Source: Blasia pusilla (taxonomy: Eukaryota). Taken from it: a stretch of DNA of 64,000 bases. The notes under the pieces were generated by a model that saw only the letters and a list, made by a program, of their open reading frames with translations, did not search any database and had not been told where the DNA came from. Of this stretch, positions 27,884 through 63,130 are shown piece after piece. The translations under genes were made by a program, and so were the position numbers. The stretch lies in contig CM114271.1 of the NCBI GenBank assembly GCA_050084515.1, forward strand, positions 33,852,001-33,916,000, in the 5' to 3' direction. Positions within the stretch are counted from its first letter, which is position 1; the number at the start of each line of letters is the position of its first letter.

Positions 27884-29467
27884 TCAAAGTAGATCGAATC
27901 CGTTGATCAACTCGATTCTCACTCTTCCCAGAGTCCCTGAGCCCAGAGACACGGCCGGGTAATAAACTCCCTCTGGCAAATTGCTCCAGGCAACTCCAAA
28001 CTTCTGCCCGTCTATGGTGTAGGAACAAGTATGTTCGAACATGTCCAGCTGCACTCGGACCCGGGCACCTTGGTATCCAAACTTCTTGCCATACGGCATC
28101 CATGGAAAACCAAGAACATTGCACTGGTTGATGAGAGTTCCACGATCGTCCATCCTCAAAGCCCATCCTGTGGGTTGTTGGGTCAAGCTGGCACCATTGA
28201 AATTGGGCTTCCCCGAATGCAAACTGCTGACCTTGTAAAGGCCCACCTCACAGAACTGGTAGCAGAGTTCTTCGATCACGATATCCCACTCGTAGACACC
28301 ATAGGGCTGGAAGATGGCATTGGAAGCTCTGGCGAAGCCATTGCCCAAATCGCACTTTTCGATGACGGATCGATCTCTCCCGATCCTGTAGAAACTGGCA
28401 TGAGCTCCGTCCTCCCATGTGCCCTTCGCAACCCTCGGCCTCTGCAGCGCATGGAACCGAAAAGCGTCCATGAGACTGGCGCAAGGAATGATGTCCAGGG
28501 GCTCTATGACCTTGATGAGAAGCTCAGGGTGGATGCGTCGCAGATCGACCATGGAAATCAAGCTCGCCACGGACGAGGCTATGTCGTCCCTCAGCTGCAT
28601 GAACTGATCGAACTGGGAGCCGGACTCGTCGGAGCACCCATCCTGCACGTCTTGCAGAGGAGACGAGAAATCCATATCCTGGGGATCGTTGAGCAGAAGG
28701 AGAGCCTTCTTGGCGTCTGGAAGGTACAGCCTCACGATCTCCTCCGCCTCCTCATCTGCAGAAGCTCTGCAGCTGCACCACAGAACGATCTGCCTGAAAC
28801 GGAGGTACTCACCCAGAGACAGAATCGGACTGCCCATGTCTTCGGGCTCCTTCTTCGTCTTCGACAGGAAGTACTGGAACGCCTTTTCGGACAGGTTTCG
28901 AAGATGCACGGGCTCCAGGCACTTGGAATTCAGAACCCTCACGAGCTCCAGAGGAATCACATCCATGGAGCTGCTGATGGCAGGGAAGTCCATGGCCACG
29001 GACAGATTGCTGGCGGCCACGGTCATGTCGATGCTCAGCTCGAAGGTGCCGTCCACCAGATACTCCCACACGATGTCCTCCAGGTTCTGCAGAATGAAGT
29101 ACCTCGCGGCGCTGATCACTTCGAACGCCTTCCTCCAGCTCAAGGGGGCGTGCTCCACCATCATGCCCGTGTACAGAAACTCCAGAATCGACAGCAGAAC
29201 GGGGGACGCGATTTTGGGGAGGGAGATTTCGGACTTGCGAGAATCGGCCTTTCCGGTCATGAGCAGGCCCTTGAGAACGGGGGACCTCGCGCACAGCAGA
29301 AGGCGGCAGGCGTGCACCCGATCCCCGTCTTCGCACAAGAAAATCACATCGCTGAAGTCCACATTGTTCAGCATCTTCCTCTGATCCGCAAGCAGATCTG
29401 CAGCTGCCTGCGTCTGCGCTTGCCCTGCCTTCTCCAGAAACCTCGCCTTCACGGATGGAGCTTCCAT
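27884..29467 (-). CDS. Intronless BTB/POZ - helical (BACK-like) - SPRY/B30.2 domain protein (putative CUL3 substrate adaptor)
   Basis: The frame is open from 27884 to 29923. BTB signature FSDVIFLCEDGDRVHACRLLLCARSPVLKGLL...ILEFLYTG; SPRY signature YEWDIVIE...LDMFEHTCSYTIDG...LPEGVYYPAVSL. Start placed at MEAPS (29467) because the upstream 152 codons are tandem-repeat low complexity. Confidence 0.88.
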   Translation of the reverse strand: MEAPSVKARFLEKAGQAQTQAAADLLADQRKMLNNVDFSDVIFLCEDGDRVHACRLLLCARSPVLKGLLMTGKADSRKSEISLPKIASPVLLSILEFLYTGMMVEHAPLSWRKAFEVISAARYFILQNLEDIVWEYLVDGTFELSIDMTVAASNLSVAMDFPAISSSMDVIPLELVRVLNSKCLEPVHLRNLSEKAFQYFLSKTKKEPEDMGSPILSLGEYLRFRQIVLWCSCRASADEEAEEIVRLYLPDAKKALLLLNDPQDMDFSSPLQDVQDGCSDESGSQFDQFMQLRDDIASSVASLISMVDLRRIHPELLIKVIEPLDIIPCASLMDAFRFHALQRPRVAKGTWEDGAHASFYRIGRDRSVIEKCDLGNGFARASNAIFQPYGVYEWDIVIEELCYQFCEVGLYKVSSLHSGKPNFNGASLTQQPTGWALRMDDRGTLINQCNVLGFPWMPYGKKFGYQGARVRVQLDMFEHTCSYTIDGQKFGVAWSNLPEGVYYPAVSLGSGTLGRVRIELINGFDLL

Positions 29468-29554
29468 GTTCGCCTTGCCCTGCCGCTCCACTCCTCGCCC
29501 ACCTCGGCCTTGGAACGGAATTCTGCTCGGTCGGTGCGATTTCTGTCGGGTTCG

Positions 29555-29830
29555 GGGGATGGGTCCCGAGGAGGCAGAGGAGGAGAGTGGGCGATGGAGG
29601 AGCCCGACAGAAGTGATTGTTCGGGTGCTGTGTGAAGAGGAGGTTTGTGTCTGCTTCGGGGGGATGGGTCTTGAGGAGGCAGAGCGGAGTGGGCGAGGGC
29701 GATGGAGCCCTAGAGAGGTGATTGTTGTTCGTTCGGGTGGTGTAGGGAAGAGATTCGTGTCTGGTTCTGTTGGGGATGGGTCCTGAGGAGGCAGAGGGGG
29801 AAGTGGGCGATGGAGCCCTAGGGAAGTGCT
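29555..29830. repeat. ~105-110-bp tandem repeat, 3 copies, upstream of the BTB gene start
   Basis: ggggatgggtc..gaggaggcagag...gggcgatggag near 29555, 29659 and 29771. Confidence 0.85.
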
Positions 29831-31713
29831 TGTTCGGGTGGTGCGAGGTGAGATTTGTGCGCGGTTTGCTTCATGGGGCCGGGACTTACTTGGCCCGAGC
29901 GAGAAAGGATAGACAGCATCCACCGAACTCTAGAGCGGGCTGCAGCCCCATCACCTGCTACATGCGAGTTCGAAATTCCATGCCTTGAAGGAGAGGGCGA
30001 TTTCCATTTCGGAAGAGACTGTCTTCGGAAATCTCGCTGCCATGCCTCTTGCAGCTCTCGAGTCGGTCGGACTATTCGAGGTCAGCTCGCTCATCCTTCT
30101 TTTCTCTCTCTCTGTCTCTTCTCCTCTTCTCTCCTCCTCTTTTCTTCTAGCCTAAGACGGACAGATTCGGTCAGACTATTCCTTCACTTCCCTCTCTCTC
30201 TGTTTGCTCCACTTCACTCCTAGAGCAGGACTGGCAGAGTCAAACTACTCCAGTGTAGCACTCCCACGCACACCTCCTTTCCTTCTTTTCTCTCTCTCTC
30301 TTTCTATCTATCTGTCTGTGCTTCACTTCTATCTGAAGAACAAACGAAGCCTATCCCAAGATAGATAGGCATGCTTCTCCACCCACGCCTTCATTCCTTC
30401 ATTCCTTCTTTTCTCTCTCTCTCTCTCTCTCTCTCTGTGGCAAGCACAAACATAGCCTACCTACAACAGCTCTGAGAGGCTTTCTCTCCAGCTCCAGCAC
30501 AGAACGACAGACAGCTTCAGGCACCGCCAATGCAGAACAGCCAAGCTACCCCGTCTCCCCACCCAGCAACCCAGAAATCCGGATACCCTTTGCTCCATCC
30601 CTTCTGACCTGCCTCCCCCTCTCACCCTCCTCCTCCTCCTCTTTCGACCACACGACTCTCAACGCACTGCCTCTATAGCCTCGCTCTCTCGTACGGCCCA
30701 TCGCATCGATGGGCTTTCCTCAGCCGCCTCCGATGAGTTGCTGACGCACTGAGATTCTGGCGAAAGTGGAGACGCATTCGGAGGGTGAGGTTGTTACGAT
30801 GAGCAGGAGTAGGAGGGGTGTTTCCCATGTCGAAGCGAGCGAGTCGAGGGAAGAGCGCACTCTGATCCTCCCTGATATCAGAGCCTTCTGATCCTCCCTG
30901 ATTGCAGGGCCTTCTTGGCCTCGAGCTACTTGTTCGTGGGGTTGCGAGATCGTCGGAAGAGGCCTGTCTGATGATTCCTGATACTAGATAGAGCCTTTTT
31001 GGCCTCGAGGCCTCCTGGTGGGGTTGTGAGATCCGTGGAATAGTGTACTTTGATGCCTTTTGAGATGGGAGGCATCGACGACCTCTTCGTTCATCGATGG
31101 TTTGCTCGAGCAAAGATCGATCGATGGCGCTCTCCTGATCTCTTGGTGGATCGAACTTGGAGGGTTTGTCGGTTGTTCGTGGCGAATCTCAGCCACAATG
31201 CTCGGGTGGGTATTGGCTGGGCGAGTTTGAGTAGTTGCAACCAAGTCGCGTGGAATCGTCTCGGCATGGGAAGGACAATAGTTTCGTTCCCCAGTAGGTC
31301 GATTACCTCGAATCTATGTCAAGCGCATGAATGGAACTTCGGTGAGCTCCCACTCTCTGGCTCAGTTCCTCTGAAGGTCTGCAGAGGGATTGGATAATTT
31401 GCAGAAAGGGAGTGTTGGCTCGATTTGCCTACTATGTCCTATCATGGACGATCGAATCGAGACAATTCGGCTTCTGCTTATTCTCATCATCTGGACCGAA
31501 ATTTCGCGAACTGCTGGAGAGAACTCCCAGAAATGGACATGGGAACTTGCCATGTTTGTCGTCAGCTGAAGAGATCGAATTGTAGGTGCTGAAACCCATA
31601 GCAATCCAATTTTTCTACATATCAAAGAGCTCACTTTACAGCAAAAGCAGCAGAGGCGACTGTAGCGTTTCATCTTTCTTCGTAGCATCTACCAAGAATA
31701 TTAGGAGACGCTG

Positions 31714-35333: not shown

Positions 35334-38300
35334 ATGAAGGCTGAGGAGAACAGTGACGCCAGGGCGCAATCGGTGAAGGGCGATGGGTCTGCTTGCTCAG
35401 TTTTGAAAGTGGCCTACAACGATTGTTTCAATAGGTGCGGTTCGATTTTCATTTGTGCTCGCTTTGCGAATTTCAATGAGCCCCGTTCCTGACTTAGGCA
35501 TGACTGTGCTCTGCTGGGAAGCCGCAGAATTGCAGATAATTTGAGTGCATTCTTGAGGAGGCTTAGGTTCTGTGATGCATGTCCAGGATTCACTGAATCG
35601 GGTGATTAGTCCTGGGAAGTTGGGTAGGGCATTCGACCGATGCTTTCATACAGCAGAGCTCCATCTGATGGACCCACGGAGCTCCTGCTGGAAATTGGTT
35701 TTCGATATGGGCATTCACAATAGCATATGGCAGTGGTCTCCAGGAGGACGTTCTTGCAAAGATCGTAGTTGAGCTGAGTACTCACTAACATAGCATTGGA
35801 ATGCCGTGATACTTCCTTCCCTTCGTCACGTGGGTACTGGATGAATTGGATGTGAACTGAAGGAACTGCTCGCAACCCAAAGACATTGGTGCTTTCCTTG
35901 TGAAGACCCAATTTAATCTAATAGAGAGCATCCTTACGGTGATTGCCAGATGATTCATGTCGAAGCCGGCTTATAACTCTGGATTGGAGCAGCCCGGCTA
36001 TGTGGGTCAGATGCGGAATCATCTTCAAGGTTGTGAGCGTTCATTCAAGAAAGGAAGGGATAACCCCAGACATTTTTTAGATGAGTGGAGATTTCACCTG
36101 CACAGCGCAGAGATCATCTTGTGAATGACATCGAACTCTTGAAATTAGGGTTCTTGGATTCTGGTTTTCTTTTCAATAGTCACTTACGTGACTATGCCAT
36201 AGACCGTGCAATTGGTGTAAGGAATCTGTGAAAACGTAATAATCCTGCACTTAGGTCAAATTTTCCACCAACCAAATTGAGAGTTCATGGAATGGTTCAT
36301 GGGATACTCACAAAAGATCGCCATTGATACAGAAAAAGACGACTGTCCAATACGCAAAAAAGTTTCTCATATGCTTTTGTTATAAGTGCTGTCCACAGCA
36401 CTTCCAGTCAAAATTGTGTGCTGATTGGTATCTTGGGTTTTTTGTGTGGTCACACAGATGGTATACAGACAAGTTTCTGAAAGGTCAGTGGGAGAAAGAG
36501 GAGTGCACCGTAGAATGGGAGGCATATCGAGCCTGCCTTGCGGTATGTACTCTATCCCCTTCTTAAACTGGGCTCTCACCCAGTTGATACAGCTGAAGCA
36601 CCTGCATTCTATTTCTGTCTTTTGCCACATTAAATGGGATTGCTGCAAGTTCTGTGGATATTTTATTTTGTTGCTGGAATGCATATCTTAATTTCTCAGT
36701 ACTTTGGAAAACACTGTAAGGAACAAATGATTGGTTGATTGGTTGATAGAGACTGAAAGTCCACAGGAAACCAGAAGGACCATAGGAGTGAGAACTACAG
36801 TGCCATATGTGAGGGAATTCCATTTGTGGGTGGTGATTTGTGCATGGTGAACATGATGCTCGGGATGGTAGTGAGCCAATTTTTGTGATCCTAAGTGTAC
36901 AAAAACTTACCCACTGTTGGAATCAAGGGTGGAAACCAGTCAAAAAGTTGCAGTGAATTATCTTTATGCAGACTGCACCTGAATGATTCTTGTTACCAAT
37001 TTCCTCAACTTCTTAGTCTGTGCACATCCTCAATCGTTCAAATGTGGTTGACCCTTGCGTCTCCATCCAAGTTATGGGATCCCCAACTAAATCTAGAGCT
37101 GTCCCGGTTGCTGTGGACGTAGGAGCTGCCCAGGGTTCAAACTTAGGTTGGATGACTTGGGAGTATCTGCTACTCGTTTGACCTTTTTGTGTCCTGATTA
37201 TTCGAATGAATGAAATGATTTATTGTCCATGGGGGTCCAAGAAGGAAGATGGGACTTTGATTCGTAGCTTTTACGAATCAAAGTGAGAACCCAAATGAAG
37301 AGAACCTAAGAGGTCATCTGGTCCAGGTGGTGTTCCCTGGCCTTCACACACCTGTGTACGAATTTGGCAATCTGAACTTGCTTGTTGCTAGTCATGAAGT
37401 CAGCAACCGTGAGGGTAAGACCTTGGAAGAGATCTGGGAACTCAAGTCTAGTGTACCCGTGGTAATTGCACTTGGATAGAAAATTTTCTACATCATCTAA
37501 AATTCCTTAGCTACAATGCTTACATAATCTGTCCTCTCTTTTGGTTTGTGAGAACTTTCCTCTCTCCAATTCTAAGTGTGTGGAGCCACATCTGAATCTA
37601 GCAATGTCATGATGGAGTTTCATGGACATATTGGCAGCGTGTTCAGTAGATCACTGGGTATTCATGAAAATGCAGTAACTTTGCATCCTTTCACCGTCTT
37701 TCCCAGACTGATTGCACCTCCTCTCGCATAGCTTTTGGTGGTTATCCCAGGTAATAGAGATATAGTTGTTACGCAAAATCTCCATAAATCTCCACAAATC
37801 CATTATCTAGTACTTGTAGTAGATCGTGGGGGATTGTCATTCTGACACCAAGGCATCTACGCATGAAGGGTTTTTATGGGATTTCTAGTCCCTTGGGCCA
37901 TTCATGGGTACTTGGACCCCAAACTTGCGAAGCATATGGAGTGGTTGGAATGACTATTGCTTGTAAGAGGTGGAGTTTTTGTGGTATGTTTCACATTTCC
38001 ATTCTCTTGCAATTGGAGTCCAGCAGGTGAAGACATCACATCCCTAGGTTTGCTCTGCTGCGACTGCCTTGGTTCGCCAATTGTTGTTGGCAATGAGAGC
38101 AGGTGATCAAGATTGCTGTATGCTCGCGGAAAGCCAGCTTGTCCGCAAGCCCAAGCATTGATCTCGTCCACCCAGTCACTCAACTCCCTCTCTAACAATG
38201 TTCCATACAGGTTAGTTTGGCCATGAATGAACTCGCCATAATAATTCTATAGTTGGAGCCCACCATTGGGTCCCAGGCCGTGAAAAGTGGATGTATGGTA

Positions 38301-51309: not shown

Positions 51310-51791
51310 ATTGCTTGATGAGACAAGTAGAGAAGACTACAAGCGACAGACGCAGAGATAAGGATTCGGCTTCAAGGGGAACCCCAAAAGTGCTCTAGAG
51401 AGTAGTGACGGAGTTTGGTGATGTCGATCATAACATAGAGGTCATCCTTGAATCTCAACCACCTTCAAAGATCCCATACATATTGAATCAAGAAGAACTT
51501 GTTGAGCTGAAAAGAGAGTTGAGTGAGCTCTTAGAGAAGGGCTACATCGGAACTAGCAAGTCACCTTATGGAGCGCTTCTCGTCTTTGTGAAGAAGAAGG
51601 ATGGGAAGATGAGACTCTGTGTTGATTACCGTGCCCGGAATAAAGTGACGGTGAGAAAAAATTACCCTCTTCTGAGGATTGATGATCTCTTCCATAGATT
51701 ATCAAGAACAAAGTACTTCAGTAGGATTGACTTGACGTAAGGATATTACCACATTCAGATTGCCGAAGCGGATGTGGAGAAGACTGTGTGT
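51310..51791 (+). mobile_element. Older Ty3/gypsy element (host): RT N-terminal part
   Basis: VDHNIEV...[51 protein letters not shown]...KYFSRIDL...QIAEADVEKTVC. Confidence 0.92.
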
Positions 51792-52023
51792 ACTCTGTTT
51801 GCTTGGCAGGTCACATACGTTTTCACATATTGAGCAACATCCTCTTTCATGTTGGGCCAGAAGAACCTCTTAATTAGAAAAGCTAGTGTGGATTTCTCCC
51901 CTTTATGTCCTACCAAGTGTCTGTCATGACATTCTACTAACATATTGGTCCGCAACGTGCATTCGCCCACATATATCCTGCTATGCTTAAACCTTACTAA
52001 GCCATGCCTCAAACTTATGTTGG
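51792..52023 (-). mobile_element. Host Ty3/gypsy: integrase zinc-binding (HHCC) part, inverted
   Basis: CHDRHLVGHKG...FFWPNMKEDVAQYVKTYVTCQANRV on minus. Confidence 0.88.
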
Positions 52024-55000
52024 TGTCACGTATTTTAGGATAGATCAGTGAGATCTAGTAGAGCGCCTTCGTGAGTAGTTGACGACATGCTCAATAGGTT
52101 GAGGATGACCTATTGAGGCCCCGGGAAACCTGAGAGACGAGGTTTCCCTTTCGTTTCGGCTCATTTGGAGCCATATTGAAGAACTTACTATTTTAGGTAA
52201 GTATCATTTTGAGTATATGGTCGACTTCATATTTTTGGTAATGGCCCTTGAACTCCTACATCAGGTCAAGAGCCAAGGAGGTGACTTGGGAGAATAGATT
52301 ACCATGGAGAGAGCTTGGGAGAGGGGAAGGGTATACCTCAAGGAGAGAGAGCTTGAGAGCTCCTTCTCTCTTTGTTGAACCTCTTGGCATGAGGCGGCGG
52401 AACTATGGTCTTGCTTGCCTTGTGTGTGTAACCCAAGCCTCTCATTAGGAGAGTGGGTTTGGTTTGACATTGAGAGAGACATGTGAGAGTGCACACATGT
52501 GAGAACTATGGTGTTGTGAGAGAATGAGAGAATGACAAAGTGAGAGAGCTTCATGGGGAAGTTCGCTGGCACTCGCTATTTTTGCAAGTTGGGGATCGTG
52601 TTCCCCGTTCAGCGGCTCATGGGAGTGCTCACTAGAGCAAGGGCTGATTTGATTGTTCTTTGTATTTGCCGATTTTCCGTGTGGAAGAGTGGCGCGCGGA
52701 AGCATTGCCCAATTTCTGATAGGGATTGATTATGGGGGCTCGTTGCCCCATGCCGGTGCTTTCGAGAGCACCATGCAGCTTGCTGATTTGTATTTTTATA
52801 GGTTTTACATTTTGGTTGGGAGAAATCGGCGCAGAAGTGCTGCCGAATTTTTTGTAGGAGAAAGAGACATTGGGCTTTACGACAGTACCCATAAATTTTT
52901 ACTCAAATGTCCAATTCAAATAGTTTTTGACATTGTTGTAGATGGTGAAGCTGTGCAACAAATGGTGCGCAATTTGGAGTTGTGAGTAAGAAGTTATGGT
53001 CAATCTTGAAAAAATGCCATTGCTAGGAAATTTTTTGGGTTAAATTGTTCAAATCCTAAACCAGCCGTCGCCTTCATAGTCACCGGTCACCGGTCAACTC
53101 TCTTTCTCTCACCGTCAACGTTTCACCGTCCACCGGCCACCGTCGGCCGTTGCTGTTGCCCAGCGTTGCTTAGAGCCACATTCGGCCGTTGTCCACCCTT
53201 TGGTTGCCATTGCGCCATTACGAAGTGGAGGGTCTTCCATGACGTTCTTTGATTCTCTGACTTGCGTCGGCACCACGTACTTTATTTTGGCCGCCACCAT
53301 CATCGAAGTTTCATCGTAAACCAGTGACGCCAGATGAACTCTCGTTATGATGTTTGAGTTTTGATTTCATGCTGCTATGTTGTGATTGATAGCCACTCGA
53401 CAACGATCGAGTACCATGCCCTGATACTCGTAGCCCCAACCCGCCGCCGATTGCCGCGCCGTGCCGCTCGTGGGCGCACCGCACCGTCTCGATTGCAGAG
53501 TCGCACTGTCATTGTGGAGCAGAGTGTGGGCTTATTGTTGATTGAGGAGGGTATGCCGCCGAGTGCCGCATCCCACCATCGAGGGTCGTGTTGTTCGTAG
53601 CCGTTCCGTGCCGCGTGCAACGCCGCACCGTTCCGCTGGAACCGCACTGTCTATCGAGGAGTTTTGAGCAGCGTCATTCCGGGAGGAGTATGACTTGCTG
53701 ATTGGAGGATTGTCTCCACGACCGAGGTTGGGGTTGAGATTTTTAGTTGGATAGGAGCGACATCGACATGTGATCAGGTTACCCATTCTGGTCCTTTACT
53801 CTGCACGCGTGAGGGATTCTGGGATTTGGGTAGTTTATTTGGGGATATTGGGTTGTGTGGATGCGGAGAGCATCATTTAAGTATGTGGTTTAGGGGACAT
53901 AGACCTGTGTGGGATGTCCGGAGTTGAGGGTAGGTTGTCGATGAGATGATAGTCTGGTCAATTTGCTGCACCACGCCGCTTATTGCTGCACGTTATACGT
54001 CTCGGGGAGGGAGAGTGTAGATCGACTCCCGTATGTTTGGGATGAATGATTGAGGGATTACTCACAAGGTTGAGAGTGATCGTGTGAGAGGGGCACGAGG
54101 GTCATCACCGCGTCCTTTCATAATTTTGAGAGGCGAGGTAGTGGACCTTAGAGTAGCTCTGGAGGGTTTACCCGGAGTGGTGCGAGGTTTCGAGGGTCTC
54201 TACGTGAGAGATCACCTCGATCTCCTTCTGTGTCATCTTCAGACGAGGGGGAGTGTGTAGAGGAGTTTATGAGCACATCGCCACACATTATGAGTGGTCC
54301 TACTAGTTGGGCGTTGTCATATAGTAAAATCAGCTAGTGTGTAAACTCCTTCCTCGTTAAGTGTTAGATAGAGTTTTATTAGTATTAAGTAAATTAGCTT
54401 AGGAAAAGGAAATCCCCATGTTTAAACCTCTTCATGGTGCCTCTTTTATATGGGCCCAACTTTAGAAAAGAGCTAATAAATAAAAGATGACTTTATAAAA
54501 GTAAAGTAGTGAGGTTGGTGCTTTAATGAAAACCAAAAGTAAGCTTGGTTGGTGGCTAGGTTAGTTGGGGTAATTTGGAAAATATCAAGTAGGTAAAAGA
54601 GGATATTTTGGAAGAGATAAGAGGAAATCTACTTGTGTCAAAATGTGATTGGCTAAGCCTTGAGAGGAAGTCATGTGGCACAAGATAAGATTAACTCTAT
54701 TTCGTACTCTTGTAGGTCTCTTGTGAGTATATAAAGAGGAGGGATCTTCAAGGTCCATCACCTTCTATTCCACATCTTGAGTCTTCCGTGTCACTCTTGA
54801 GTGTATGACTTTGGGATTGCTTGCTCTTCCAATGAGAGTGGATCACCCCTCTTGGGAGAGTAACTTGACCATGGTCTGTTCTTCGAGAGGTTTCTAGAGT
54901 GTGGTGTGTGTGTGGAGATGAGAGGTTTGTCACCTTAGAGGAGTTTAGTCATACTAAAATAGTGAATATTTTGGCTTGTTACTTCCCCAATGAGAGTGGA

Positions 55001-55599
55001 TTACCCCTCTTGGGAGAATAACTCCGCCAAAACCCATTCTTAAGGAGAGTAGAGAATGTGTGTCAAGCATGGATAGGGGTGGAACACGAGTTGTGCCCGA
55101 CTTTCCTTTCCTTAATCCATACCATGTCAAGATACTCTTTGTAGATAGGCACTGGTTCACTCGCTATTTAGTTTATCATTTTGGGGAGGCGTTCATGAAC
55201 CACGTCATTCAATCTCCAACTCCGATGATCCTTCCTATTGTCACATATGGAAGGATATGGGATTGTACTTTATATGTCCTTTTATAGCAATCCATGGACG
55301 TTAATAGGCCTGCTCAAGTAGGGTTTAATACTAACTGTGCTATCTTCCTCTTATACAAGCGTAAAATAGTCTATAGGGATTTTATAGTTAGGAATTTTGG
55401 GTTCCGATGTTACGAAAAAATGATCGCCTCGGCACTTCCATTTGTGATACCTGTTGTGAGAGAATGGAGAGTATACATAATAATTTTATATTGAAAAAGG
55501 AGATCTTCTCAGAGAATTCATCTTGCATCGACCGCGTCTGCCGCAGCTAGAAGGCCTGCCCTTACTCGAAGAAAGGCTCTCAACATGATAGCGTAAGAG

Positions 55600-56690
55600 A
55601 TGGACGACCGGGATAGAGGACCGCGTAGGTTTTCAGGTGCAGTAGGCACGATTGAGTTGCACGATTTCATAGCAGAGTTTAGGAGTTGGTGCGACTCCCA
55701 GCGGGCCAGGAACTCTAGAGAGTTCAACCCATTTACAACATGGAATGATATGTTCCAACATTTAGAGAGGGCGCCCATGGACTATTACCATGAGTTCTCT
55801 CAGAGATATGCACGTGAGATCGAGGCATGGAGGCTCTACTATGACCCACATTATGTGTCATGGACGGAGCCGTTCCCAGATGAGGAGGAGGAGTCAGGAG
55901 AGGCTACTTCCTCTTCCACTAGTGACGTTTTAGGAGGGGTCACTCACACGGGAGTAGTTGCACCGTCTAGTCAGGTTCGTCCAAGGTTCAACCTTGTGGT
56001 TGAGTTCTTTGCTGAGTTGAGGGCGAGCTACCAGGAGGTACAGACGGAGAAGTTGCGGAGCATCCACGATTTCTAGAGGCTCCCGGGTGAGAGTTTGCGT
56101 GAGGCTTACACTCGCTTGCGCCGGTTGATCAACGTCACTCAGGGGTGACAGAGGCTCAGGCTATCCAGTCATGGTACGCGATGCTGGACCGGACCCTGCG
56201 GACACGGGTGCGGGAAGGGGTGCTTCTTATGAACACCTCCCCTACATTGAGAGATGTTTTTAGGACCACCGAGAACATTGAGCGCAACATGGCGGAGGAG
56301 AGCGTAGCCACCATGGGTTCTGGGCGAGAGCAGTCACGATTGCGTGTAGTATCTGTACAGCAACGTGGACTCCGAGATAGGTCGACTGTGGCACCACGAG
56401 CTCAGGGAGAATACCAAGGGGGCGTGCCACAGAGACATGCGCTTTCATATGGGGCTCAACAAGAGCCGCCTACTATTACTTGTTGGTCATGTGATGGAGC
56501 CCATCATCAGCGCGATTGCACTCATCAAGGTTATGGACGTGTGCCTCAGCATGGAGGAGGAGATGGTGCTGCGCCAAGAGGTTATCAGTGTGACTATTTT
56601 CAGAGGTATGGTCATACACACGCGAGGTGTTTCAATTTACATCCTGAGTGACGTCCGGATCGAGGGCCACAAAGGGCACCAGAGCGAGTA
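55600..56690 (+). pseudogene. gag of the DNMT-carrying element, with two zinc knuckles
   Basis: PRRFSG...F*RLPGESLREAYTRLRRL (major homology region-like); CWSCDGAHHQRDC and CDYFQRYGHTHARC; stops and frameshifts present. Confidence 0.8.
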
Positions 56691-57545
56691 GCCGATCCGG
56701 ATGGGCCTAGAGATCGTGCACCAGGTGGTCCCGTTGGGGGACGAGGAGCTAGAGTTGCTCGACAGGGTGGTGGAGCTTCCCATGGAGGAGGTAGAGTACC
56801 ACCACCTAGATGTGCCGAGGGCCACGCCGGACGTGAGGCTGGGATGGTTGTTCAGATACAGCAGCTACAAGAGCATATTGCCGCTATGGCATTGAGGTTA
56901 CCCGATGTCGGATCTGTGGCATCGACATCATATGGAGCAACCAGAGATCTGGAGGATCCTTCTTGGATCTGTGGGGTTGCCATGATGGAGGCCGCCGCAG
57001 TTGTGACGCGTGGAGCAGCCGCAGAGTTGGATCCACAGCGAGGGAAAGCCAGGAAACAGACTAGGCTTCCTCAGTCTTTCACGTTGTCCGAGGCGATGAG
57101 GATCCCATCGATGGGTCCTGATCTGAGTTCCTGGAGAGTTTGGTGATATTTTTGGTATGCAGGCACGGAGGGCGATGGGAGAAGCAAGTACGAAGACTCC
57201 TATTGTTGATGCTAAGGAGAGGCATGTGTCGAGCACGTTGTTGTGTACCGCACTCCTTTATGTTCTGCTTTAGATGTTATGATGTTGGGGGGTATGCCGG
57301 CCGAGGCTTTTTGGCTGGCCGCTTCACTATGTGAGCGCGGAGTTGGAGTTCCTGCATCACGTTCAGAGGTGATTCCAAAGGAGGTGATGGACTTGCCCTT
57401 GGGGCGGATGCTCGGGCCGTCCACGTTAGTGTCATGGCAGGTTGCCACTTCTAGGATGGCGGAGATGCCCGCTAGACACGCGATAGAGCGTGCCATGGCT
57501 TCTCCTGGTGTTGTGTTTCTGGATAATTGAGGAGAGGTCTTATAC

Positions 57546-57900
57546 TTGGTGAGTCCCGCAAGTAGAGCTTTTAGTCCGCAGCGCGTCTTGTTGGATTCAA
57601 GAGCGCAACTCCTGATGTTGGGAAAAGCGTCATTCAGAGGATTGGGCTTGACGAGAGCCGATGTGGAGCGTTGTCCATTCCGGATACAGACATCCTTGGG
57701 TAGAGCGAGTACCACACAGTATATCACCAGGAGGTCGTGGTGAGGATTCGCCCAGGACATCCTACAGATGAGTCCGTGGTGCAAGCGAAGGCGATAGTGA
57801 CTGATGCAGAGTCCTACGACATCTTGGTTGGTGGAGCAGTGTTATACCCGATGGGGTTTTCCCTGAATTACTGGGAGGATTGAGCCACCTACAGACCAGG
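57546..57900 (+). pseudogene. Retroviral-type aspartic protease remnant
   Basis: RVLLDSRAQ (degenerate LLDSGA) and downstream YDILVG. Confidence 0.7.
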
Positions 57901-58289
57901 ATGGCACTCATGTGATGGGCGCCTTAGCTCATTACCAGTTCGATTCACAGGTGTAGTGATCGAGCAACGGCCATGAGAGATGGCGACCTAAGCAGCATTC
58001 AGCAGTGCCATTACTTGGCCTAGTGATTTGATTGAGGGACATGTCTATGCAGAGGATATTCCATTTCTATGGAGAGGAGTGTTATGGTAGCCGCATCATT
58101 CCGTGGAGGAGAGGTGCCATTGTGGGGCTCGACTGAGGAGCTTTGACGATTGGCAGATGAGCATGTGCAGACCGCATGGAGCGAGGCGTTTGCACCGAAG
58201 CTTGACGGGTCTGAGGAACCCAAGGTAGCATGGAGTGTTACGATGACACCCTTGGATACCACACCCATTGTGTGGTGTATCCCGGAGGA

Positions 58290-58868
58290 GGGTATTCAAG
58301 TGTTCGATCTCTTTGGAGGGATTAGCACCAGGTTAGCTGTTGTTTTGCAGGTAGGAGTGCGAGTGCAGCATGCAGTAGTACATGTATGTGGAGAGTGATG
58401 ATGTTGCGAGGCGCATCTCACTACGATATGTGGCGCAGTTACGCCTACGTTTTCCCGACTTATTGTTTGCGTCCGCGATACAGGGGTACCAGAGTTCCCT
58501 ACCGAGGGATATTTTGTTGCTGGGGGCGCAAGATTTAGACCGATTAGGCACCATTGATTTGGTCATTGCCGGTTGGCCATGTCAAGGCCAATCGTATGTT
58601 GGACGAGGCAGCGAGCTGGCTGACACTCGGTCCAGGTTATTTTGGGAGATGTTGAGGGTCTTACGGTAGTTGTAGGAGCACCAGTCTCATTCTCCAGCCT
58701 ATATTCTGGAGAATGTGCTGATCTTAGGAGACTCTAGGTTACGGGTGGTGATGAGTGCTCATCAGGTGCGTGCCTGGATCGGACCAGCAGTGTTCTTAGA
58801 TGCAGCAAGTGTAGGTTCTAGAGCCCATCGCCCGCGTCTATGGTGGACCAACTTAGTGCCCCATGCGG
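58290..58868 (+). pseudogene. C5 DNA cytosine methyltransferase domain (DNMT3-like), C-terminally truncated
   Basis: Motif I VFDLFGGIS (~58300-58326); motif II YVE; motif IV DLVIAGWPCQG (GWPCQG at 58571-58588); RSRLFWE; motif VI YILENV (ENV at 58709-58717); motif VIII AHRPRLWWTNL (RPRLWWTN at 58829-58852). One frameshift near 58370 and TAG stops at 58667 and 58673. Confidence 0.9.
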
Positions 58869-59505
58869 TATGAGGGTGAGTGCTTGGCTGCAGTGTGGGT
58901 TGTCGCGTATTTCAGGTGTTACTTATTCGGAAACCCCTTTATCATCATCACTGATCATCAACCACTGAAGTGGTTGATGTAGTCCGACAAGCTTACAGGG
59001 AAGCTTGCAAGATGGGCTCTGTTGTTGCAAGAGTATGATTTTCAGGTGGTACATAGACGTGGGATGCTCAACCAGGATGCAGATGGATTGAGTCGTAACC
59101 CATGCCCGAGTCAGCGAGATGCAACTGGAGCTCTGTGGCATGGAGAGAGTGATGAGGAGTCAGTGCCAGGATGGCACACGTCAGCCTATTTAGGCATGTT
59201 GGCTATGGAGAGCCGGAGTGTGGAGACTTCGATGGCAAGGTCTAGTGGAAAGTCCTTGGATCCCGAGGCCAGTGAGGAGACCACATGTGGCTGAGATATT
59301 CATGATGATGGAGTAGTCTTGGAGTACCTTCGTACTGGTAGCGTTGCAAGCATCGTGGGTGCTAGAGAGCAGGATCGGATCCTACATCGGGCCAGACGGT
59401 TCCGTTGGGAGGGGACACGTGTTTTGAGGGTTTAGGAGGATGGTAGAGTACGCGTAGTGCCACATCCTTTGCATAGAGCACGACTAGTGCAGCATGCCCA
59501 TGAGG
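58869..59505 (+). pseudogene. Ty3/gypsy RNase H C-terminal part and start of integrase zinc-binding domain
   Basis: YEGECLAAVW...ITDHQPLKWL...[34 protein letters not shown], then RVVPHP...LVQHAHE. Confidence 0.88.
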
Positions 59506-60850
59506 TGTCGTGCACCTACTCTCCTTGAACGTTAATCTTGTTTGTTGCGGAAGCGTGCGTTCAGTAGGTCACGCTCTCAACGCTGATCTGCATCCAAACA
59601 CGCACTTCGGTTAGTCGGGTCTTGGATCAATCAGCGGGAGTACTTTCCGAGTTCTCGTCTCGGACTCTCTCTTCAAGCTCAACCTTCCTAGTTTCGCGGT
59701 TTCCAACACGGGCAAGTCTCGAAAGACTTGGGGAGACTTTACAGTCGGTTCGGGAACTGAAACGGCGTTTCGCGCCTAGCGGTTCCAACTGTCCGATGAA
59801 CATCCAATGAGTTCCTCACCAAGACTCACACGAAGTGAATCTCGGGTTGGAATCCAAGTGTGGCGTACAAAGTCCACTCCCTTGGATCAGGTTTGGGTTT
59901 CGGGTTTCCGCGCCAAACTCCCGTTTCATCACGTGCCTCTGAAACGCCGTTTGGCGCCCAAAGTGGGGTTTCGTTTCCCGAGACATCTCAGAGAAGGTAC
60001 TCCCCTTACTAGTACTTCTGGGGATCTCGGGGCCCCTACATTTAGGGGAAAGACACCGGGCCCCTCCAATTGGCCCTCAACCCGATTGCTCTCTGAATCG
60101 TTTTCGGCCAATATCTCAGCCTGTACTTATGCGTTTGCTGAGATCTTTAATGCGTTGGAAGCGTCTTGAGATCAGCTTTCCAACGCGCCCTTACTTGTCT
60201 CAAACGCATCTCAGAGCTCAACGTTATGGTCCTAAACACAGTCAGATTCTCCCAAACGCTAGTCATGTTCCGAACTGGTTCTCACCTCTTTGGCAACCAA
60301 CCTCCAAGACTCAACTCATCTCAAGTCTCGGCTCGCGTTTGGTTTAGGTTTCCTGGTCGCGACCATTAACGCATGAAACGCACAACTCTGTTCCGCATTT
60401 CGTCTCTTAGACTTTTCCAAGAGACTCTTCCAAACGCCTCTCCAAAGCGCAAACCTCGCGGCGTGAGTTCCTTTGAGTTCTGATGTTTCGCTTGGCGCGT
60501 ATTTGGTGTTGTTTGGTTATGAGGGTCGCGACACTCACCCCTCCTTAGAAGGTTGATGTCCTCATCAACGCAAACCTTATTGATGTTAAGTTCTGGGAAG
60601 CCGACCCCTTAACACAGAATCGCGTTCTGGTAGCTAACCCGCAATTCCTCTTTTTGGCTTTAGTCTTAGGTTTGTCGCTTATAAAGACTTAGACTTATTA
60701 GCTTGTGCTTTCTGATGAGCCTAGACTAGTTCTACCAAACTAATCTAACTATCAAAATAAGCTCACTAAGTCTGCAACCTAACACTTCACTCACTATTTG
60801 TAAACAACCGCCTGTCTACCTAGCCAACTCGTACCTAGCCAACCCCGTGT
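59506..60850 (-). mobile_element. Nested third gypsy-type fragment: 1028-bp LTR (59506-60533), PPT and 3' internal sequence
   Basis: On minus the PPT aaggagggggtgag is followed by TGTCGCG...CACGACA; it interrupts the integrase right after HAHE. Confidence 0.75.
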
Positions 60851-60854
60851 TCTC

Positions 60855-61118
60855 TTGTTGGAGGGACGCGATGGTATGGTATGGAAGGACCATGTGCGTA
60901 ATTGTGCGCCATGTCACCTTCCTAACATTGATGGTACAGTAGATCCAAGCTTAGCAGTAGTTCCTGCAGGCTTGCGTTGTATGTTGTGTGGTTTTGCTCG
61001 TGGTGCGGCCACGATGCTAGTCTGTGATGGATGTTCGAGAGGTTGGCATATGGCATGTCTGACGCCACCTCTCACTAGGGTTCCTCTGAGACAATGGATG
61101 TGTCCGAGATGTACATAG
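60855..61118 (+). pseudogene. Integrase C-terminal tail fused to a PHD finger
   Basis: LEGRDG..WKDHVRNCAPCHLP followed by CMLC...MLVCDGCSRGWHMACLTPPL..VP...WMCPRC (C4HC3), then a stop ~180 bp before the PPT. Confidence 0.88.
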
Positions 61119-61434
61119 AGGAGATACTAGGTAGATTTTGATTCTGACTTTTTTTGTGACATGGATGACATGAAGGCGACTAACGATGGGGCCACATGAG
61201 CACCCGGCCTTTCTGCTCTTAGAGTCCTAGAGATGTATGTCATGGTAGGTAGGGATAGATGGCTATCTGGAGTTAGAGGGACCTAACCACCAGCTTGGGG
61301 GGCAATTGGAGATATTTTAGTACTTCTTGTCTCGTTGTTTGGATGCCATGAGTTAGCATGGGATCGTGCGTGTTTGTGTGTGTGTTTGGTGACAGCGATG
61401 TATGTTGTGTAGCGATGTGTATGCGCACGACAAC

Positions 61435-62078
61435 TGTCACGTCTTTTAGGATAGATCGGTGAGATTTAGTAGAGCGCCTTCATGAGTAGTGGAGGACAGG
61501 CTCAGTAGGTCGAGGATGACCTGCTAAGGCCCCTGGAAACTAGAGAGACTAGGTTTCCCTTTCGTTTCGGCTCATTTGGAGCCATATTGAAGAACTTACT
61601 ATTTTAGATAATTACCATTTTGAGTATATGATCAACTTTCTATTTTTAATAAATGGCCCTTGACCTTCTACATCAGGTCAAAAGCCAAGGAGGTGACTTG
61701 GGAGAATAGGTTACCATGGAGAGAGCTTTGGGAAGGGGAGGGCTGTACCTCAAGGAGAGAGAGCTTGAGAGCTCATTCTCTCTTTGTTGAACCTCTTGGC
61801 ATAAGGCGGCGGAGCTATGGTCTTGCTTAGCTTGTGTGTGTAACCCAAGCCTCTCATTAGGAGAGTAGGTTTGGTTTGACATTGAGAGAGACATGTGAGA
61901 GTGCACACATGTGAGAACTATGTGTTGTGAGAGAGATTGGATCTTACTTTATTGGAGATATTTTAGTACTTCTTGTCTCATTGTTTGGAGGCCATGAGTT
62001 AGCATGGGATCGTGCGTGTTTGTGTGTGTGTTCGGAGACAGCGATGTATGTTGTGTAGCGATGTGTATGCGCACGACA
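61435..62078 (+). repeat. 3' LTR of the DNMT-carrying element (644 bp)
   Basis: TG...CA ends; the first ~500 bp match 52024-52520 at roughly 90% by eye. Confidence 0.8.
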
Positions 62079-63130
62079 TTGGCCACCTTCTCCTCCTGCT
62101 TCAACTTCTTTAGGTACTCGCTTGTTTGGGTGTCCTTCATGTATCCTTCACAAATACTTCTCTCCAGATCTGTTTCCTTACGGAAACATTGCTCTCAAGA
62201 CTTGTGTGGTCGATGGCATGTCCTCATCCCTACGATTCAACGCATCTAGAATGACATTATCCTTCCCTAGCTTGTGGATTAATTACACATTCATTAACAC
62301 CAAGTATCATGCCATCACAGTTGTTTCGGTGTCACTTGATCATGGGTCTCAAAATACTTGAGTGATACATTATCGGTGAATACTCGAGTCGTGTGAAGTC
62401 CCTAATAGTGACACCACTTGCTCAAGAAATGGACCACCGTGAACAACTCTTTCTCATGAGTGGGCCACCTCCGTTTAGTGTCACTAAGCTTCTTGCTCTC
62501 GTACGCTACAGGTCTCCCTTCCTGTACCAACATCCTTGCGATGGTGAAATCACTAGCATTAGTATGCACCTCAAAGCGGTTTTCAAACTGTGGCAGCTTT
62601 AGAACTGGCTCCTATGATAGGATCTTCTTGACTCGATTGAATGCCTCATTCACTTCTTGGGTTTAGGTTGTGTTAGCAAACTTGGCGGTCCAATCAATGA
62701 GTGGTCTCACTATTCCCAAAAAGTTCCTTACATAAGTTCAGTAAAATTGAAGTGCGCCAATGAACCTCCTCATTCCCTTCATTGTAGAAGGTGGCTTCCA
62801 CTTGGCGATCGCTTTCATCTTATCCATATTAGGACTAACTCCATGAGCGTTAACCACATGACCCAAGAACTTGATCTTGCGTAATCCCTACTCACTCTTT
62901 TCCATATTCCTATATAGCTTGTTTAGCCTTGGTTTCCACACCACCGCTCTCAAATGTCGAACGTGCTCCTCTTGTGACTTCGAATAGATAAGTTTGTCAT
63001 CAATGTAGATGATCACGTACTCATTTGTCTCCTCGTGAAAAATGGAGTTCATCAATGTGGGGAATGTTGGAGGCGCATTACATAGACCAAAAGGGCATCA
63101 CTAAAACTCAAACGAGCCATATCTCGTCCT
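62079..63130 (-). mobile_element. Host Ty3/gypsy: RT C-terminal part and RNase H, inverted
   Basis: Minus strand RTRYGSFEF..MPFGLCNAPPTF...IYIDD.LIYSKSQEEH..HL...KFLGHVV, continuing to EYLKKLKQEEKVA. Confidence 0.9.

Follow-up and report, generated by a model that had tools for sequence, protein, structure and literature searches.

What is a PHD finger doing near the 3' end of a mobile element in Blasia pusilla, and does it belong together with the DNA methyltransferase (DNMT) fragment that lies upstream of it? Both questions are raised by a stretch of 64,000 nucleotides (assembly GCA_050084515.1, contig CM114271.1, positions 33,852,001 to 33,916,000 of the forward strand), which we call the window and whose own numbering we use throughout. 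A preliminary description of the window had placed the PHD finger where chromoviruses carry a chromodomain and had proposed that a single element may couple chromatin-guided integration with de novo methylation. We found that positions 52024-62078 are a Ty3/gypsy-type retrotransposon and that the PHD finger is the C-terminal end of its pol protein. In full, the element has the order gag-protease-DNMT / RT-RNaseH-integrase-PHD (RT, reverse transcriptase). The copy in the window is an old, dead and internally deleted member of this family. Taken as a whole, the earlier interpretation is partly supported. The identity and anatomy of the family, as set out below, are in our judgment virtually certain.

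The finger is encoded by a plus-strand open reading frame (ORF) at 60804-61118, which specifies 104 amino acids and ends with a TAG stop codon at 61116-61118. Pfam PF00628 matches residues 59-103 of this ORF (60978-61112) over the whole model (1-47 of 47) with E = 4.6e-11 and 43 bits against a cut-off of 24, and the eight zinc ligands (C59, C62, C74, C77, H82, C85, C100 and C103) have the canonical C4HC3 spacing; the complete finger named in the preliminary description is thus confirmed to the nucleotide. The 51 in-frame residues ahead of the finger correspond by homology to the last part of the integrase C-terminal domain in relatives. Residues 632-725 of one such relative, P0005, align to 60825-61112 without gaps at 76% identity (tblastn), which bears out the claim that the finger is in frame with an integrase-like tail and marks 60825-60977 as the end of the integrase C-terminal (SH3/Tudor-like) domain plus a linker. 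At E <= 0.001, the window ORF was matched by 64 of 181 scored longer proteins (best E = 3.5e-45, identity up to 85%), and close relatives include Marchantia polymorpha, Calypogeia fissa and Sphagnum fallax. PF00628 is listed in 57 of these 64 matches and the integrase core (rve) together with PHD in 15. Judged by sequence, the match of the window PHD is far beyond chance. A Pfam scan of the window ORF gave no Chromo (PF00385) match. At codon 61089-61091, the finger has Arg, in contrast to the Gly found in 92% of relatives. Between the integrase barrel and the finger, at 60891-60917, there is also an H-x3-C-x2-C-H motif that is conserved in the family (C37 99%, H38 95%, C34 73%, H30 75%); it may be an additional zinc site that enlarges the PHD in the manner of the UHRF1 pre-PHD.

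Intact relatives carry the same arrangement in a continuous protein. In P0044 (1106 aa), P0045 (1083 aa), P0048 (1039 aa) and P0049 (1043 aa), Pfam detects RVT_1, RNase H, Integrase_H2C2, rve and a terminal PHD, and the shorter P0005 (728 aa) holds RNase H, integrase and PHD. The continuity of integrase and PHD in intact copies, which the preliminary description had put forward as a check, is therefore found in one-ORF RT-RNaseH-integrase-PHD proteins, and such proteins occur in Marchantia, Calypogeia, Sphagnum, Volvox, Pleodorina and Haematococcus. Across the relatives, the Ty3/gypsy domain set (gag, protease, RT, RNase H and DDE integrase) is complete. A search that used P0045 from its integrase to its PHD as the query gave 378 matches at E <= 1e-10 among 8000 proteins scored, and the best 120 of these 378 were analysed (hereafter the best 120). 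PF00628 is listed in 118 of them and the chromodomain PF00385 in none; Pfam scans of 36 relatives likewise contain no chromodomain. Named sources in the best 120 are Haematococcus lacustris, Volvox reticuliferus, Volvox africanus and Pleodorina starrii. The position behind the integrase barrel, where chromoviruses carry a chromodomain, stands, and there is no sign among the best 120 that the PHD replaced a chromodomain.

We also searched 1.84 billion representatives clustered at 50% identity with a profile of 611 positions. The profile included the integrase core, and its totals (132,676 representatives at E <= 0.001, 55,463 at 1e-10 and 8,597 at 1e-30) count gypsy integrases generally and not the size of this family. 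We used the best 150 (hereafter the best 150), all with E <= 1.1e-153. A family hidden Markov model found the PHD in 138 of these 150; of the 12 that lack it, 10 are truncated, ending at most 63 residues past the C-terminal domain, and 2 have room for a PHD. A query of the ESM Atlas with the integrase-PHD part, with PHD clusters excluded, returned generic integrases (scores 0.84-0.88) and one cluster at 0.84 in which 44% of members have Chromo; we take this outcome as a lead only. Taken together, these comparisons describe a large clade in bryophytes and green algae in which the PHD stands right behind the integrase C-terminal beta-barrel.

Does the DNMT belong to the same element? The fragment in the window (plus strand, 58285-58870) is the N-terminal half of a DNMT3-like cytosine-5 methyltransferase (Pfam DNA_methylase PF00145, E = 4.3e-8), and it has 28 homologues among longer proteins, including proteins from Marchantia, Calypogeia and Sphagnum troendelagicum. 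In P0082-P0086 (1427-1451 aa), gag (CCHC), protease and DNMT lie in a single ORF, and DNMT motifs I, IV, VI, VIII, IX and X are conserved across eight gag-protease-DNMT proteins. The best solved relatives of the P0082 DNMT are DNMT3A, 3C and 3B (E = 2.2e-6 to 1.2e-5), ahead of M.HaeIII. With a family DNMT profile, we found a full-length DNMT in the same protein as integrase-PHD in 53 of the best 120, and 81 of the best 150 have DNMT and PHD in one protein.

These proteins have two arrangements. In arrangement 1, the DNMT is upstream of RT (P0099, P0106, P0188, P0202, P0323 and P0328) or in a separate gag-protease ORF, the gap between RNase H and integrase is 118-351 residues, and only 0-14 residues lie between the PHD and the end of the protein. 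Arrangement 2 has the DNMT in the interval from RNase H to integrase, a gap of 563-811 residues, and 72-471 residues follow the PHD; in the algal clade (P0128, P0142, P0152, P0160 and others), these residues have no Pfam assignment. An integrase tree (120 sequences, 423 columns, FastTree LG, midpoint root) splits the two arrangements 42 versus 78 with a support of 0.999, and the window copy belongs to arrangement 1. The long gap holds a DNMT in 30 of 31 proteins from the best 120 and in 43 of 43 from the best 150. Where a short-gap protein has enough sequence ahead of RT, the DNMT is found there in 4 of 6 (about 330 residues or more, best 120) and in 3 of 5 (at least 400 residues, best 150). 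A subclade of four proteins (P0139, P0155, P0164 and P0180), nested in arrangement 2, has a short gap, keeps the PHD and has no detectable DNMT, which looks like secondary loss. We conclude that nearly all clade members that can be judged carry a DNMT3-like methyltransferase too, so that the co-occurrence of PHD and DNMT, which the preliminary description had asked to see tabulated across the clade, is borne out. P0082 (gag-protease-DNMT) and P0048 (RT to PHD) both report a longest contig of 8955 nt, which makes a common contig only suggestive.

We considered and rejected a two-element model, in which the PHD and the DNMT derive from different elements. Both family ORFs align colinearly with the window, and there are relatives that have the two domains in a single ORF. 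An outcome that the preliminary description had named as fatal to its proposal is thus not what we see: the two domains share an element lineage and, often, a polyprotein.

We then asked what type of PHD finger this is. Residue conservation was computed over 172 family proteins. The zinc ligands are 96-100% conserved, and further conserved residues are the Asp after Cys3 (94%), Gly80 (95%), Pro88 (93%), Pro94 (96%), Gly96 (92%) and Trp98 (89%). The mean top-residue frequency of the PHD is 0.60, compared to 0.57 for the integrase zinc finger and 0.65 for the core, and 13 of its 45 columns reach at least 90%; by this measure, the PHD is conserved to the same degree as these two integrase domains. 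PHD fingers that read H3K4me3 with an aromatic cage have a Trp two residues before the zinc His. In the family, that position is Gly in 95% of proteins, and because Gly sits where the cage Trp would be, we expect no aromatic cage for methyl-lysine. The residue directly ahead of the zinc His is aromatic (W 79%, Y 16%).

By sequence, the nearest solved chains are CHD4 PHD2, PHF12, Lid/KDM5A/KDM5B PHD1, KMT2D, KAT6A, PHF21A (BHC80), DPF3, ATXR5, AIRE and UHRF1. For comparison of folds, we modelled P0004, a Marchantia fragment of 219 aa that shares 79% identity with the window ORF, with AlphaFold from a 51-row alignment. In this model, a long helix is followed by a five-strand barrel (residues 100-150) and then by the PHD. 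Foldseek against the Protein Data Bank matched the whole P0004 model to Tudor-PHD modules (PHF1, MTF2 and UHRF1 TTD-PHD) with large root-mean-square deviation (rmsd). The finger alone superposes on DPF2 and DPF3b at an rmsd of 0.6-0.8 A with 44-46% identity and on BHC80 at 1.0 A with 48% identity, as expected of a PHD fold; other finger matches include MOZ/MORF, ATXR5-H3, BAZ2A with unmodified H3K4, CHD5 and UHRF1 with unmodified H3. No H3K4me3 cage reader is among the Foldseek matches listed at ranks 1-50, where similar further chains past rank 10 are omitted. The PHD proteins matched here (BHC80, DPF, CHD, KDM5 PHD1 and ATXR5 type) bind the H3 tail with unmethylated K4. Set beside the readers of unmodified H3 as a group (BHC80/PHF21A, DPF2/DPF3b PHD2, CHD4/CHD5 PHD2, KDM5 PHD1, ATXR5, BAZ2A/B and AIRE PHD1), the finger shares 44-48% identity at an rmsd of 0.6-1.0 A over 45-48 residues, as well as the conserved Asp after Cys3 and the lack of a cage Trp. 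Those readers differ from it in being host chromatin proteins and not integrase fusions, and the bryophyte subgroup differs from them in having no acidic patch ahead of strand 1. Both the sequence comparisons and the model suggest that the family PHD most resembles readers of the unmodified H3 tail.

On this basis, we propose a mechanism for active members of the family. The PHD would bind the N-terminal tail of histone H3 having unmethylated lysine 4, and would tether the complex of integrase and complementary DNA (cDNA) to transcriptionally silent or promoter-distal nucleosomes. New copies would land off active promoters, parallel to the role that the chromodomain plays through H3K9me in chromoviruses. 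Separately, the DNMT of the element would methylate the new copy or its cDNA, an action that has been proposed for other DNMT-bearing retrotransposons in the available text of de Mendoza et al. 2018 (PMC5890265). Reader and writer would then be paired at the level of the element and not as a single allosteric enzyme. The preliminary description had drawn a parallel with the ADD domain of animal DNMT3, and this parallel holds only loosely, the fusion partner of the PHD being the integrase and not the DNMT. Because the DNMT of the window's subgroup is in the upstream gag-protease ORF, the PHD cannot be an in-cis sensor of the methyltransferase, and with the two domains in different ORFs an ADD-like intramolecular switch is not expected. 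Tethering through unmethylated H3K4 we hold at slightly less than an even chance, and the whole reading, which joins the family identity to such tethering in active members, is evenly balanced in our judgment. The window copy itself sits within another retrotransposon, which fits targeting of silent chromatin and is a single case.

Several points weigh against this reading. With Arg at the Gly position that is 92% conserved and with the integrase missing, the locus itself says nothing about activity. The P0004 model is of moderate confidence (mean pLDDT 75.7, pTM 0.39). In several readers of H3K4me0, acidic residues ahead of the first beta-strand contact K4 or R2; in the window and its bryophyte relatives, the residues before strand 1 are replaced by G, A or S, and D or E reaches 22-34% per column, in many algal members. 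Members of the larger algal clade have further residues behind the PHD, and the finger by itself may not be sufficient for its function there. Partners of PHD fingers also include molecules other than histones. Finally, a nested insertion can be explained by selection after integration instead of by targeting.

How do other explanations fare against the same evidence? The PHD could serve the DNMT by bringing or licensing the DNMT3-like enzyme on H3K4-unmethylated nucleosomes, as an analogue of ADD, with methylation of the insertion and its surroundings. The co-occurrence of the two domains is nearly without exception where it can be judged (43/43 and 30/31 long-gap proteins), the enzyme is DNMT3-like and the finger is like H3K4me0 readers, and in the larger clade the order RNaseH-DNMT-integrase-PHD in one ORF makes a DNMT-integrase-PHD polypeptide possible. 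In the window's clade, however, the DNMT is upstream of RT or in a separate ORF, about 1000 residues from the PHD, and the subclade that retains the PHD without detectable DNMT (P0139, P0155, P0164 and P0180) points to an independent role for the PHD, so that we consider this explanation unlikely. It is very improbable that the PHD reads a methylated mark (H3K4me3, or H3K9me/H3K27me) and sends integration to promoters or to marked heterochromatin. Some PHD fingers do read methyl-lysine, the family has an aromatic residue ahead of the zinc His as well as W98 in 89%, and chromoviruses, as far as the sources cited below describe them, provide a precedent for targeting marked heterochromatin. That aromatic residue, however, sits at position -1, where PHD fingers without a cage also show F, Y or W in the alignments to solved chains; position -2 is the Gly seen in 95%, and no methyl-lysine cage reader is among the best sequence or fold matches listed.

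The finger might instead be no histone reader but a zinc module with a structural role, or a site where a host protein or nucleic acid docks, as needed for nuclear import, intasome assembly or particle formation. PHD folds make non-histone contacts in some proteins, the conserved CxxCH just upstream hints at a larger zinc-bound unit, and in the fold search the barrel plus PHD pairs with Tudor-PHD modules that act as units (PHF1 and UHRF1). Against this role, the finger is nearest in sequence and fold to well-characterised readers of the H3 tail, with 44-48% identity over the finger, and the P-x-G-x-W loop and the Asp after Cys3, which hold the H3 N-terminus in such readers, are conserved; we regard it as rather improbable. 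It is highly probable that the PHD ORF at this locus is a functionless relic, and that its apparent pairing with the DNMT fragment is what a dead copy has left behind. RT is absent, the DNMT is truncated, other sequence stands in for the integrase core, the protease motif carries a mutation, the PHD shows the Gly-to-Arg change and the identity of the terminal repeats has fallen to 91.4% and 96.9%. This explanation is true of the window copy and forms part of the reading that we prefer; it leaves the conservation of PHD and DNMT in hundreds of relatives unexplained. We give little credence to the boldest version of the proposal, that an ancient green-algal and bryophyte Ty3/gypsy clade is a mobile reader-writer unit in which the PHD would pick H3K4-unmethylated nucleosomes and the DNMT3-like enzyme would at once methylate the new copy, installing its own chromatin state by the logic of animal DNMT3-ADD, on a DDE-integrase element with DIRS-like split repeats.

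We traced the coding parts of the window copy by colinearity with its relatives. The gag region (55597-57440, plus strand) includes a CCHC-like knuckle (CWSCDGAHHQRDC), is disrupted by stop codons and shifts of frame, and is colinear in several frames with residues 9-680 of the Marchantia protein P0071 (Mp_4g09160); Pfam finds zf-CCHC in the relative P0082. Overall, 55615-58870 is colinear with residues 9-1070 of P0071 (1278 aa) through several frame changes, and this first ORF is interrupted by stops and frameshifts. The aspartic protease region follows at 57441-57946 (plus strand, tblastn to P0082-P0086, in which Pfam detects Asp_protease_2), and its active-site motif at 57588-57602 reads LLDSR where relatives have LLDSG or LLDTG. 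In the DNMT fragment, we located motif I (58303-58320), motif IV (PCQ, 58577-58585), motif VI (ENV, 58709-58717) and motif VIII (58823-58837); motifs IX and X are missing from the window copy.

At 58857-58873 (plus strand), an internal deletion junction joins DNMT motif VIII out of frame to the middle of RNase H. With this deletion, at about 58860-58870, RT has gone in its entirety, along with the C-terminal half of the DNMT and the N-terminal half of RNase H. Only positions 50-86 of the 105 in the RT_RNaseH model are matched (58857-58979, E = 9.8e-12), the tblastn alignment of P0044 to the window begins only at residue 415, and neither the Pfam scan nor tblastn gave an RVT_1 match inside the element. 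The C-terminal part of RNase H and the linker to the integrase lie at 58869-59504 (plus strand), where residues 85-316 of P0005 align at 61% identity (E = 5.5e-83, tblastn). The integrase zinc finger and core (residues 317-631 of P0005) have no counterpart in the window. In their place is 1.3 kb of unrelated unique sequence (59505-60824) in which we found no Pfam match in plus-strand ORFs, no tblastn match to family pol proteins and no second copy within the window by blastn. The integrase tail in the window is thus detached from any integrase core, and the window copy is non-functional in DNMT, RT, protease and integrase. What remains is gag-protease-DNMT...RNaseH...PHD inside one pair of ends, and the best named matches of the element's proteins are in liverworts and Sphagnum. 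About 3 kb lies between the first terminal repeat and the start of gag (52524-55596), more than the room left in the contigs of intact relatives; this part, where a direct repeat of 37 bp occurs (54829-54865 and 54987-55023), may include additional insertions.

The ends of the element are split direct repeats. On the plus strand, repeat A1 (52024-52523) begins with TG, repeat B1 is at 61305-61432, repeat A2 (61435-61934) again begins with TG, and repeat B2 (61951-62078) ends with CA at the 3' end of the element. A1 and A2 are 91.4% identical over 501 bp and B1 and B2 are 96.9% identical over 128 bp (blastn), which gives the order A1...B1-A2-B2 with TG...CA termini in the one copy examined. The target-site duplication TTGG stands at 52020-52023, directly ahead of the first bases TG, and at 62079-62082, and the insertion of 52024-62078 measures 10,055 bp with this 4-bp duplication. 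We rejected a model with an ordinary long terminal repeat (LTR) composed of B plus A (61305-61950), which requires two independent truncations at the identical B/A boundary and gives ends without TG...CA. The split-repeat model is preferred because of the TG...CA ends, the TTGG duplication and the frame that is restored in the disrupted host element. The 3' non-coding internal stretch (61119-61304, plus strand) contains a GGGGGG run at 61297-61302, 179 bp downstream of the PHD stop codon. The preliminary description had the PHD ending about 180 bp before a polypurine tract; the distance holds for this G-run, and it is uncertain whether the run is the tract, given that the element does not end in ordinary LTRs.

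The flanks of the element are the two halves of one older, different Ty3/gypsy element on the minus strand, with RT and RNase H at 62312-63094 (tblastn) and the integrase zinc finger at 51758-52012 (Pfam Integrase_H2C2, E = 3.6e-17, 51758-52054). When 52024-62082 was removed in silico, both flanking parts fell in frame -3 with a single alignment across the junction, and a 126-aa ORF spans the junction. This older element is 28-31% identical to the PHD family. A third gypsy fragment (51444-51788, plus strand), from the part upstream of and entering RT, is 29-32% identical to the family and adjoins the minus-strand integrase fragment, and the neighbourhood as a whole is a heap of retrotransposon debris. 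Elsewhere in the window, we observed two host-like features: an uninterrupted 681-aa ORF on the minus strand (27887-29929) with BTB/POZ (E = 3.6e-16) and SPRY (E = 4.4e-6) domains in a G+C-rich block, and a UPF0203-family fragment on the plus strand (36255-36563, E = 6.8e-8).

How does this element compare with known systems? The closest by description is KnitGypsy-Dnmt3 of Klebsormidium nitens, for which the available text of de Mendoza et al. 2018 (PMC5890265) reports Gypsy domains and repeats with the structure of DIRS elements. Like it, the element here combines a Gypsy-type pol, a DNMT3-like methyltransferase in the coding region and DIRS-like repeats (A1...B1-A2-B2), and with the domain set, the enzyme and, in one copy, the repeats all present, it belongs with Gypsy-DNMT3 elements. 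As far as that text goes, the DNMT of KnitGypsy-Dnmt3 is in the Pol ORF, in contrast to the gag-protease ORF of the window's subgroup. The main text and legends of that paper contain no mention of PHD, Marchantia or green algae, and one text supplement contains none of PHD, Gypsy or Marchantia. Among the named matches to the ORF, to the DNMT fragment and to integrase-PHD, there was no Klebsormidium protein, and kinship with KnitGypsy-Dnmt3 is by description only. A 2026 preprint (bioRxiv 10.64898/2026.05.21.726589), in the part available, mentions "streptophytes (Gypsy-DNMT3)" and describes EpiLTRs, which carry a chromodomain, an adenine methylase and a DNMT4-related DNMT. As there described, EpiLTRs resemble our element in joining a chromatin reader and DNA methyltransferase(s) in a single LTR retrotransposon and differ in the domains used, which here are a PHD and a DNMT3-like enzyme; Pfam scans of 36 relatives found neither a chromodomain nor an adenine methylase domain, and the family is not of the EpiLTR type.

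Chromoviruses such as MAGGY and Tf1 likewise have a histone reader fused to the integrase C-terminus behind the barrel, with a presumed role in guiding integration. Chromodomains are stated to guide integration (Gao 2008, as quoted in PMC6673714 and PMC12477314). Their reader is a chromodomain with H3K9me as its ligand, in contrast to a PHD whose ligand here is likely to be the unmodified H3K4 tail, and which is accompanied by PF00385 in none of the best 120. PHD fingers are a common accessory domain in Chlamydomonas transposons, including Gypsy-7a_cRei, according to the text available of PMC8557442 and PMC9940879. Gypsy-7a_cRei shows intergenic insertion at 2.6x the expected level (Craig et al. 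2022, PMC9940879) and, compared by that description, is also a green-lineage Gypsy with a PHD finger in Gag-Pol and suspected targeted insertion; it differs in that no DNMT is listed and in that the figure legend puts the PHD before the integrase. In a survey of 172 genomes, PHD and Chromo were, in the part of the text available, the reader domains most often fused to RT or integrase domains (10.1101/2021.11.30.470311). PAT-like, Ngaro and VIPER elements have split direct repeats with A1 at the 5' end and B1-A2-B2 at the 3' end (PMC6681497), the same order as here. As described in the available text, those elements use a tyrosine recombinase; the family here has a DDE integrase (rve) and the window copy has TG...CA ends and a 4-bp duplication, and with Integrase_H2C2 and rve in its relatives it is not a tyrosine-recombinase element of the DIRS-like, PAT or Ngaro kind.

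PHD fingers in transposons and DNMT3 in Gypsy elements (Klebsormidium) are thus on record in general terms. A literature search found no text on an integrase PHD in a DNMT3-bearing lineage, nor on this lineage in bryophytes or chlorophytes; Perez-Alegre 2005, the Craig 2021 thesis and, for de Mendoza 2018, the figures and PDF supplements were outside its reach and may show such a domain. A 2025 review of plant transposon localisation does not mention PHD. Our analysis adds three things. By the comparisons above, PHD and DNMT are a conserved pair in a large green-lineage clade; the sequences and the model point to a reader of the unmodified-H3 type; and split-repeat ends are documented together with a target duplication.

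Retrotransposons with their own DNA methyltransferase have been described from few lineages, and the readers known to be fused to integrase are mainly chromodomains. The DNMT3-bearing gypsy lineage with a conserved integrase PHD spans chlorophytes and bryophytes, in more than 150 clusters at 50% identity. In Marchantia there are many family copies, and chromatin maps and genetics are available. The family provides a concrete, testable case of PHD-guided integration in plants, and a natural system for asking why a transposon pairs a reader of unmarked chromatin with a de novo methyltransferase.

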